Of a stretch of 64,000 bases of DNA, positions 62,030 through 63,769 are shown in pieces. The notes below the pieces were generated by a model, which searched no databases, had not been told where the DNA came from, and worked only from the letters and a program-made list of their open reading frames with translations. Position 1 is the stretch's first letter. Each line of letters begins with the position of its first letter. A program made the position numbers and the translations under genes. Location: NCBI GenBank assembly GCA_019058445.1, contig JAHPZA010000006.1:800001-864000 (forward strand). Direction: 5' to 3'. Source of the DNA: Promethearchaeota archaeon (GTDB lineage Archaea > Asgardarchaeota > Lokiarchaeia > Sigyniarchaeales > SOKP01).

Positions 62030-63769
62030 TTATTTTCGTAGTACTTTCTTATCAACCTTGCCTACAGCAGTAAGAGGAATCTCTTCCATGATATGAACTT
62101 TTTTGGGAACCTCGTAAGGAGAACACTTCTCTTTGGCGTAATTTACGATATCTTCTTGTAATTTTTCTTCGTTTCCATCATATTCGAATTCGGGATCAAG
62201 TTGAATGTATGCGTTTACAATTTCAGAACCCGGACGGTCGGGATTAGGTTCTCCAATAAGAGCAATCATCCCTATTGCTGGATGTTCGGCTAAAACGTCC
62301 TCGACTTTACTAGAGAATACTTTAAAACCACCAACAATGATCATATCTTTTGTACGATCCACGATTTTTAAGTATCCATCTTCGCCTATGAGTGCTACAT
62401 CTCCCGTGTGCATATATCCATCCGCATCAATAGCTTTTTTGGTTTCTTCAGGTTTGTTGTAATATCCTTGCATGACTAATGGCCCCTTTACACAGATTTC
62501 TCCTGGTTCTCCTATAGGTACCACCTCTCCTGTGTCTGGATCAATTATTTTTAATTCTACGTTCTGAATAGGCATTCCAATCGTACCTAATTTCTTTTCT
62601 CCTAAGGAAGGATTCATTGTTGAGACCGGAGATGTCTCCGTCATCCCATATAACTCTAATAGCTTGCCTTCCCCTATTATACTCTCTAATTCTACTTGAG
62701 ATTCTTTAGGAAACGGAGACGCGGCTGAGATACACGTTCCTAAGTCGGAATGATCCAAATCTTTAAACTTAGGGTTTTTGATTAGCATTTGATATAAGGA
62801 AGGAACGTTAACTAAATTGGTTGGATGGTATTTCTTCATCTCTTTTACGATATGGTTTGTATCTCTCGGGTTTGGAATTTATACTAGAGAGACGCATGTT
62901 CTCTCAATTAATATTTGCGTCCACCCGAAGTATACGGCACTTTCGGCGACCGTTAATCCGGCTATGTGAAACATAGGGAACCCAGAGCATAAAACACCTT
63001 TTCCAAATTCCCATTGAAGCCACTCTGAAATGCTTAAAATATTAGACGCGACATTTCTATGAGTTAACATAGCTCCTTTTGGCGGACCCGTCGTCCCTCC
63101 AGTATATTGAATCCAACCTATATCGTCTGGAGTTAATTTAACGTCTGGTGGATCAGAAGAGAATTCTCCTTTTAATACATCCTTGTGGAAATCTAGTACA
63201 GTTTTTCCCTCTAAAGGTGTGACTTTTCCCTTTGGTATTTTACCTAAAGCTTTACCAAGCACTTGAATTACTTTTGGCAAGAACGACCCGACACTTGTGG
63301 TAATAATAAGTTTGGTTGAACCTAATTTTGAAGCAATTTTTGTAATGTGCCCCGCAAAAATTGCATCTAATGTCACCAACGCTACTTGTTTTCCCCCTGA
63401 ACCTAGATCGTTTAACTGATATTCGATCTGTAGGGCAGACAGAAGGGGCGAGACACCTGAAATTATGCATCCCGCACGTAGAGCGCCAATTAATGAAACT
63501 ATATACTCAATAGTATTTGGTAAATTGATACCAACGACATCTCCCTTTTTAAAGCCATTTGCGACGAGCATATTTGCAAATTTATTGGCCATTTCGTCTA
63601 ATTCTTTGAATGTTATTTCAACGCCTAAATACGCTAACGCGATTTTATCTGGATAATTCTGAAACGCTTTCTTAATCATGTCAACGTAGGTCGTTTCGAA
63701 TTCTTTAGGATCTAAGTCCTTAACGTGCGGATCCCAATTTTTCTTCCAAAATTTATCACTATACGACAT
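62030..63769 (-). CDS. Long-chain fatty acid-CoA ligase (FadD-like), interrupted by a 30-nt insertion; predicted join(62030..62878,62909..63769), 569 aa
   Basis: The two ORF-track pieces are in the same frame. The N-half has QYTGGTTGPPKG and FPMFHIAG. The C-half has YGMTE, HTGD, DRTKDMI and PLTAVGKVDKK. Removing 30 nt gives ...WTQILIPNPRDTNHIVKEMKKY... Confidence 0.9.
62879..62908 (-). other. Candidate 30-nt bulge-helix-bulge (BHB) mRNA intron
   Basis: mRNA: CAA AUAU [UA^A] UU GAGAGA ACAUGCG UCUCUC UA GUAU [AA^A] UUCCA. It shows a 4-bp AUAU/GUAU helix, two 3-nt bulges and an inner GAGAGA/UCUCUC stem. Cutting after bulge nt 2 removes exactly 30 nt including the in-frame UAA. Confidence 0.65.

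Follow-up and report, generated by a model that had tools for sequence, protein, structure and literature searches.

A candidate bulge–helix–bulge mini-intron in an acyl-CoA ligase gene of an Asgard archaeon

The archaeal splicing endonuclease EndA cuts bulge–helix–bulge (BHB) motifs after the second nucleotide of each bulge. A messenger with such a motif is known from the Crenarchaeota, where the pre-mRNA of cbf5 (pseudouridine synthase) carries a BHB intron whose splicing has been shown experimentally (Watanabe 2002; Yokobori 2009, PMC2738675). The HVO_1309 mRNA of Haloferax volcanii has a BHB intron in its 5' untranslated region (UTR), verified in vivo and in vitro, and besides this case the cbf5 mRNA intron is the only one reported previously (Schwarz 2020, PMC7714728). 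In Asgard archaea, tRNA introns have been gained repeatedly and recently, by no route that has been identified, according to a preprint that reports no introns in protein-coding genes (bioRxiv 10.64898/2026.10.13.758758). Our literature search similarly returned no Asgard mRNA introns, and among archaeal endonuclease-spliced introns in coding sequence it returned cbf5 only, plus the Haloferax 5'-UTR case. Here we describe a 30-nucleotide (nt) insert in an acyl-CoA (FadD-like, AMP-binding) ligase gene of a Promethearchaeota archaeon. The gene lies on the minus strand of the 64,000-nt stretch of DNA that we analysed (the window, C6:800001-864000), which belongs to a metagenome-assembled genome of 4.6 Mb (31% G+C, 10 contigs). 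We propose, with a probability of about 0.74, that the insert is a recently gained, relaxed BHB mini-intron that EndA and the ligase RtcB would remove from the mRNA. Positions are those of the window unless a contig is given.

The insert in the ligase gene

The insert interrupts a gene that is otherwise complete. The frame is open from 63769 to 62030 on the minus strand with a single internal stop, the TAA at 62881-62879, and excising 62879-62908 leaves 1710 nt, or 569 codons, that read ...GWTQIL-IPNPRD... across the junction. The Pfam AMP-binding profile (PF00501) places the upstream piece at its positions 3-240 and the downstream piece at 242-384, followed by AMP-binding_C (PF13193); since the profile is unbroken from 240 to 242, the roughly ten codons of the insert are extra relative to the family. 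Stop-free, full-length homologues are present in relatives (40 related genomes searched), and none holds the insert. The nearest orthologues are in three genomes of the same genus (90, 86 and 83% identity), and when five orthologues (amino-acid identity 76-90%) are aligned with the gene at the nucleotide level, one clean 30-column gap appears at exactly 62879-62908. Cutting after the second nucleotide of each bulge gives a product, QIL-IPNPRD, that is collinear with all five and with the Pfam profile. A preliminary description of this locus, made from the sequence alone, had read the minus strand correctly to the letter (window 62700-63100), and its claim that these 30 nt hold the only stop in an intact 569-residue ligase agrees with the open reading frames (ORFs), with Pfam and with the orthologue gap; the comparison with related genomes that it proposed finds exactly these 30 nt missing from five orthologues, three of them from the same genus.

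The insert is present in the DNA of more than one sample. The runs listed for this DNA are sediment-metagenome DNA runs only, with no RNA run among them. A Logan contig of run X1 (2163 nt, depth ~27) spans the insert with 0 differences and 0 gaps, as does a Logan contig of run X3 (343 nt), from a second sample, and no insert-free form of the DNA is listed among the Logan contigs. The insert thus occurs in independently built contigs from two sediment samples, which excludes an assembly artefact and bears out the suggestion that the insertion is genomic. Exact searches of Joint Genome Institute (JGI) metagenome contigs for the spliced junctions of the ligase gene and of a second gene with such an insert, that of aIF2-gamma, gave 0 matches each, and the organism may be absent from that collection.

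The canonical BHB motif (hBHBh') has two 3-nt bulges on opposite strands with exactly 4 bp between them and helices on either side. All of the pairings listed in the preliminary description are present, namely the central helix AUAU/GUAU, the bulges UAA and AAA, the inner hairpin GAGAGA/UCUCUC and three outer pairings (Table 1), and the canonical cut rule removes precisely the 30 nt from 62879 to 62908, as it had stated. In constrained folding, each arrangement of a 4-bp helix with two 3-nt unpaired stretches was forced in turn. The 30-nt register, which restores the frame, is the most stable BHB-compatible fold at -21.7 kcal/mol, followed by a 26-nt register (-21.1 kcal/mol) and a 28-nt register (-20.5 kcal/mol), both of which shift the frame; the preliminary description had rightly warned of the former, and the latter was found besides. 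The minimum free energy (MFE) structure, at -23.9 kcal/mol, is not a BHB, and the BHB conformation thus costs 2.2 kcal/mol, while the corresponding cost for seven sister inserts in the same genome spans 0-3.1 kcal/mol. The local fold at the insert has a z of -2.77 relative to shuffled sequences, of which 3/200 are equally stable. Several elements differ in detail from the drawn motif. The 5' bulge UAA is part of a 5-nt/2-nt internal loop in the constrained fold, the U-A and U.U extension of the inner hairpin is not in the predicted folds, and the outer pairing of the MFE fold consists of GGA/UCC and UUCGGGU/ACCCGAG instead; the 3' bulge AAA is unpaired in the MFE fold as well as in the constrained fold. 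The BHB fold can be drawn and is the best BHB-compatible register, but the MFE structure is a different one and the geometry of the insert fits just a relaxed BHB motif.

The chance of such a fit is small. Our rule for a BHB, all 4/4 central pairs and at least 4/5 inner pairs, holds at 0.0021 of random positions in the coding DNA of this genome. Because AAUU is repeated at both borders of the insert, five different excisions yield an identical product, and 1/5 of these product-equivalent excisions obeys the rule, with a chance expectation of ~0.01.

The ligase gene is otherwise intact. The codon-usage scores of its two halves, 0.45 and 0.54, are typical of real genes (genome median 0.45). When single-base codon changes were assigned to branches by parsimony with two outgroups, we found 8 nonsynonymous and 123 synonymous changes on the branch of the gene itself (5/57 and 3/66 in the two halves), similar to the 9 and 91 of its intact orthologue in the genome G002. 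Judged from these substitutions, purifying selection on the ligase gene has been strong along almost the whole of its branch, so the insert would be either harmless or very young.

Other inserts in the genome and the aIF2-gamma comparison

By searching for split genes through the continuity of their paralogues, we found further inserts in this genome. A second AMP-binding paralogue, 14 kb beyond the window (C6:876344-878070), is interrupted by a 29-nt insert that lies 9 nt downstream of the position corresponding to the ligase insert. It is a textbook BHB, with UCGUG/CACGA as outer helix, CCUG/CAGG as central helix and AUU and ACC as bulges, and the EndA cut rule repairs the frame (VPD-PRN). 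The same cut rule repairs 29-30-nt inserts in the genes for an OYE-like reductase, a Sir2 paralogue, EF-2, a Mg-chelatase-like ATPase and aIF2-gamma (Table 1). For EF-2, Sir2 and the OYE reductase, the two pieces of the gene fall on consecutive parts of one Pfam domain, and in the ATPase the Mg_chelatase match stops at the break, with the AAA-lid domain next. Further split ORFs with BHB folds, for which the preliminary description had recommended a scan of the genome, are thus found in the paralogue and in these five genes. On a partial check only, inserts in the genes for ribosomal protein S26e and thioredoxin and in acetyl-CoA synthetase (acs) resemble the others. In the fourth acs insert, the register with a perfect 4-bp helix removes 32 nt and breaks the frame, and only with an A.A mismatch in the helix are the right 30 nt excised. 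A rule that tolerates one central-helix mismatch is too loose: for S26e it yields 27 alternative in-frame excisions. The ligase insert and that of its paralogue have AUUAAUU-AGA...CGUCU in common (alignment p ~0.025, uncorrected).

We counted, across the genome, the BHB-like excisions by which two open frames of coding appearance become fused, and found no excess, at any length, over a control in which the cut sites were shifted by 1-2 nt. The number of introns is not estimable in this way because the signal is drowned by motifs that occur by chance at the boundaries between genes on the same strand, and the filter also missed the ligase insert, whose downstream arm scores 0.076 against a cut-off of 0.1. 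Four further ORF pairs in the genome are separated by a plain in-frame TAA (C4:158207-158209, C3:524158-524160, C10:33981-33983 and C7:50317-50319) with no insert and no BHB, and each pair matches intact paralogues without a break and without additional residues. These sites could be pseudogenes, natural split-gene boundaries or readthrough.

The aIF2-gamma insert allows a comparative test of the class. It splits the P-loop, GHVDHG-KTT, which excision rejoins, and Pfam places only the downstream piece of the interrupted gene. The eIF2_C domain has one copy in the genome; the frameshifted aIF2-gamma therefore cannot be a pseudogene that the cell could do without, and inserts of this sort must be removed. 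We found an insert at the identical P-loop site in 7 genomes of 5 genera, and none in >20 other relatives, five of the same genus among them. In a gap-free alignment of six 29-nt versions, 80.6% of the cells are paired, compared to 66% in shuffles (0/500 of which reach this value), and in 8 pairs both partners have changed. The alignment has a covariation score of 0.44, compared to 0.17 in shuffles and at most 0.33 with the partners slid. In one genome, the exonic His codon has changed from CAU to CAC and the intronic pairing strand from CCAU to CCGU, which by comparison of the aligned versions is a compensatory change across the exon–intron central helix. Compensation between exon and intron is a prediction of the BHB, unlike hopping or a passive insert.

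The genome encodes both enzymes. One EndA homologue is detected by PF01974 (C9:770595-770843, 68 bits, in a 202-residue ORF at C9:770313-770921), and RtcB by PF01139 (C1:114713-116020, 574 bits). Asgard archaea have an (alpha-beta)2 EndA with a loop that confers a broad substrate range (PMC5829648), and such a broad-specificity enzyme would accommodate relaxed motifs like that of the ligase insert. ARAGORN reports only 23 tRNA genes in the 4.6 Mb, many of them doubtful and 19 called with introns, in agreement with the heavily interrupted tRNA genes of Asgard archaea (bioRxiv 10.64898/2026.10.13.758758). The cut rule is obeyed at the predicted borders in two tRNAs only, tRNA-Tyr with an intron of 53 nt and tRNA-Ala with one of 29 nt; the tRNA-Ala(UGC) gene (C6:1273916-1274018) has an exact BHB. 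The ARAGORN introns are no usable reference set.

The ligase insert looks like a recent, lineage-specific gain, as many Asgard tRNA introns are. We considered and rejected an origin from a mobile element or repeat family, as each insert is unique in the genome, resemblance between pairs of inserts is weak (best pairwise p ~0.005, uncorrected, 36 pairs) and the flanking repeats are not consistent. A 20-nt look-alike of the aIF2-gamma insert, at C6:423833, is a non-coding chance similarity. A 4-bp direct repeat, AATT, flanks the ligase insert (window 62876-62879 and 62906-62909), and the empty site in the orthologues of G016 and G022 has AATT once only. This repeat hints at the mode of arrival, though there is no consistent signature among the inserts: a consistent target-site duplication was rejected, since AAACAT is repeated at the Sir2 insert, yet seven others share 0-1 bases.

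The ligase gene has as neighbours an intact Sir2-like deacetylase gene (window 61143-61937, plus strand) and a gene for a Rab/Ras-like small GTPase of 181 residues (window 60514-61059, minus strand; GDGGVGKT...DLAGQ), a type typical of Asgard genomes. No Rfam family matches window 62600-63200.

Table 1. Features of the ligase gene (window positions) and inserts elsewhere in the genome (contig positions)
Feature	Position	Strand	Remarks
Acyl-CoA (FadD-like, AMP-binding) ligase gene	62030..63769	-	569 codons without insert; from ORFs, translation, Pfam, orthologues
Exon 1	62909..63769	-	287 codons; ends CAA AUA UUA = QIL
30-nt insert, candidate BHB intron	62879..62908	-	AUUGAGAGAACAUGCGUCUCUCUAGUAUAA; carries the sole stop, TAA 62881-62879
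Exon 2	62030..62878	-	282 codons + stop; starts AUU CCA AAC = IPN
Central 4-bp helix, 5' strand AUAU (exonic)	62911..62914	-	pairs with GUAU 62881-62884: 3 Watson-Crick + 1 G.U
Central helix, 3' strand GUAU (intronic)	62881..62884	-	from sequence, constrained fold
5' bulge UAA	62908..62910	-	predicted cut between 62909 and 62908
Inner hairpin UU-GAGAGA / loop ACAUGCG / UCUCUC-UA	62885..62907	-	6 bp predicted
3' bulge AAA	62878..62880	-	predicted cut between 62879 and 62878
Outer pairing, 3' exon strand UU, CCA, CCCGAG	62865..62877	-	partners AA 62915-62916, UGG 62921-62923, UUCGGG 62924-62929
AMP-binding paralogue insert, 29 nt	C6:877181-877209	-	frameshifting; 13.2 kb past window end
OYE / 2,4-dienoyl-CoA-reductase-like gene insert	C6:165873-165902		repaired by same cut rule
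Sir2 paralogue insert	C9:775863-775892		repaired by same cut rule
EF-2 insert	C10:684116-684145		repaired by same cut rule
Mg-chelatase-like ATPase insert	C9:269043-269072		repaired by same cut rule
aIF2-gamma insert, 29 nt	C4:384841-384869		repaired by same cut rule
Ribosomal protein S26e insert	C6:441913-441941		BHB-type; excision gives S26e-like reading
Thioredoxin insert	C6:1128412-1128441		BHB-type; central helix pairs at 3/4 positions only
acs, four inserts within ~500 nt	C10:621597-622894	-	32 nt (frameshift), 60 nt (stop-free), 30 nt, 30 nt

Splicing of the ligase message and its alternatives

In the mechanism that we favour, the ligase gene would be transcribed with the insert included. 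The last six bases of exon 1 (AUAU+UA) and the 3' end of the intron (GUAU+AA) would form the 4-bp helix with its two 3-nt unpaired flanks, and the intron hairpin GAGAGA/UCUCUC would close the motif. EndA would then cut after the second base of each unpaired stretch and RtcB would ligate the exons, joining CAAAUAUUA to AUUCCAAAC, to give a message of 569 codons; unspliced mRNA would yield a truncated product of 296 residues. Both the cutting and joining of the message and the choice of the 30-nt register are predictions from sequence. The dependence of ligase expression on splicing, which the preliminary description had drawn as a consequence, follows only if splicing occurs, and there is no sign of regulation.

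Several observations weigh against splicing of this insert. In place of a BHB, the MFE fold has AUAUUA/UAGUAU paired as a 6-bp helix, a 5' bulge (AUU) and, further out, an internal loop. In the 30-nt register internal loops take the place of both bulges, neither of which is abutted by a flanking helix, and among the eight inserts of this genome that were folded, that of the ligase is the least canonical in shape. The 30-nt register leads the frameshifting ones by just 0.6-1.2 kcal/mol, and the 26-nt register, only 0.6 kcal/mol less stable, has a perfect inner helix abutting its bulge. The insert is seen in no other genome, and the covariation in aIF2-gamma supports the class and not its ligase member. 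The low ratio of nonsynonymous to synonymous changes is also compatible with a very recent inactivating insertion, and loss of this copy would be tolerable because the genome has ~30 AMP-binding paralogues. Lastly, a second EndA subunit was not detected in this genome with PF01974, even at E = 10.

Many of these points would also be expected if the insert were a recent BHB-like arrival that is mis-spliced or not spliced at all, so that this copy of the ligase would be a young pseudogene tolerated among its paralogues. The absence of the insert from relatives, the number of paralogues and a relaxed motif in a near tie with registers that break the frame all favour such a history, as does the fourth acs insert, which is likewise relaxed with its perfect-helix register out of frame, so that imperfect substrates exist here. 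We nevertheless consider a pseudogene unlikely. The 1.7 kb of the gene contain no other lesion, codon usage is normal, and the excess of synonymous changes extends across both halves of the gene. The register that restores the frame is also the best BHB register, the identical insert is found in a second sample, and the cell must be able to process inserts of this length, as some just as short interrupt genes that are essential or present in one copy.

Explanations at the level of translation have much less to commend them. Ribosomes might bypass the insert, as on phage T4 gene 60 or the 'byps' of yeast mitochondria, with take-off at the AUU at 62908-62906 and landing at the AUU at 62878-62876. 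Identical AUU codons do stand 30 nt apart with a hairpin between them, and the Sir2 insert similarly has AAC...AAC, while the paralogue has GAU, directly followed by UAA, and then GAC. However, the inserts of the OYE reductase, EF-2, the Mg-chelatase and S26e have no repeated border bases, most of the sister inserts lack matching codons, and a hop between matching codons could not repair the several inserts that interrupt a codon in phase 1 or 2. The stop of the ligase is the last codon of the gap, away from the take-off codon, beside which it stands in bypassing of the T4 gene 60 type. The compensatory change in aIF2-gamma, predicted by the BHB helix, is likewise not predicted by hopping, and we regard bypassing as very improbable. 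Slightly more improbable still is that the TAA is read through, or that the insert encodes a genuine loop of ten residues with a polymorphism at the stop codon. In favour of this, the reading frame is kept through the insert apart from a single stop, but IERTCVSLVx would enter a segment that is free of insertions in the family profile, the 29-nt insert of the paralogue shifts the frame, and TAA is the terminator of the ligase gene and of its orthologues. An assembly or chimera artefact, which a metagenome-assembled genome in 10 contigs might raise, is scarcely credible when the independent contigs from runs X1 and X3 span the insert unchanged and no insert-free form is listed.

The removal of a relaxed mini-intron by EndA and RtcB is thus the reading we prefer for the ligase insert. 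A wider one is that this Asgard lineage has genome-wide endonuclease-based splicing of mRNA and is still gaining dozens of 29-32-nt BHB mini-introns, which we put forward tentatively, at rather less than even odds. The introns would be inserted into coding DNA, in some cases with a short duplication at the borders, like the AATT of the ligase, and in some at two points within 9 nt of each other in paralogous genes, and they would reach essential translation genes, where they would be harmless only through EndA and RtcB.

Comparison with known systems

For the ligase gene alone, the significance is modest, as accurate splicing of the RNA would be required to make a single acyl-CoA ligase among ~30 paralogues. 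If the inserts are spliced, Asgard archaea would routinely apply the tRNA-splicing machinery to messengers, those of EF-2 and aIF2-gamma included, and automated gene prediction would systematically break up or overlook the genes concerned. The invasion of coding genes by introns in archaeal relatives of eukaryotes could then be studied in a tractable system, that of recent gains specific to a lineage. The genome-wide reading, if true, would be a prokaryotic case of introns spreading through protein-coding genes, in the organisms most closely related to eukaryotes.

In eukaryotes, HAC1/XBP1 mRNA undergoes unconventional cytoplasmic splicing, in which Ire1 cleaves at stem-loops and, in metazoa, RtcB ligates the exons. 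As proposed for the ligase insert, a short intron (26 nt in XBP1) leaves a coding mRNA independently of the spliceosome and the ends are sealed by a ligase of the tRNA type; the removal changes the reading frame and acts as a regulated stress switch. The endonuclease there is Ire1, not EndA/TSEN, and, unlike HAC1/XBP1, the ligase insert shows no sign of regulation.

The tRNA introns of Asgard archaea share with the inserts described here the motif and the presumed enzymes, as well as recent, lineage-specific gain with no recognisable donor or repeated family; the two are similar in size, with a median length of 22-23 nt for the tRNA introns and 29-32 nt here. Unlike tRNA introns, the ligase insert resides in a messenger, where nucleotide-level precision sets the reading frame. 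Like HVO_1309, the ligase mRNA is proposed as a substrate of the splicing endonuclease outside tRNA and rRNA, but the intron of HVO_1309 sits in an untranslated leader and leaves the reading frame uninterrupted.

The cbf5 intron is a close counterpart. It too is a short insert in a coding frame, with patchy gain and loss among relatives; it is bounded by a BHB and processed by the tRNA-splicing endonuclease and a ligase, both of which we propose for the insert of the acyl-CoA ligase gene. The insert described here is of the same kind as the cbf5 lineage of Desulfurococcales and Sulfolobales and is not a member of it: its host is a metabolic AMP-binding acyl-CoA ligase with many paralogues, in the Asgard phylum. 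Unlike the cbf5 intron, it is known from one genome only, and its splicing is inferred from sequence. Finally, the cbf5 intron occupies a single gene, whereas at least 13 such inserts, that of the ligase included, are present in this one genome. Most likely, then, the ligase insert is a new case of the type of intron seen in cbf5, alongside at least 12 others in its genome.

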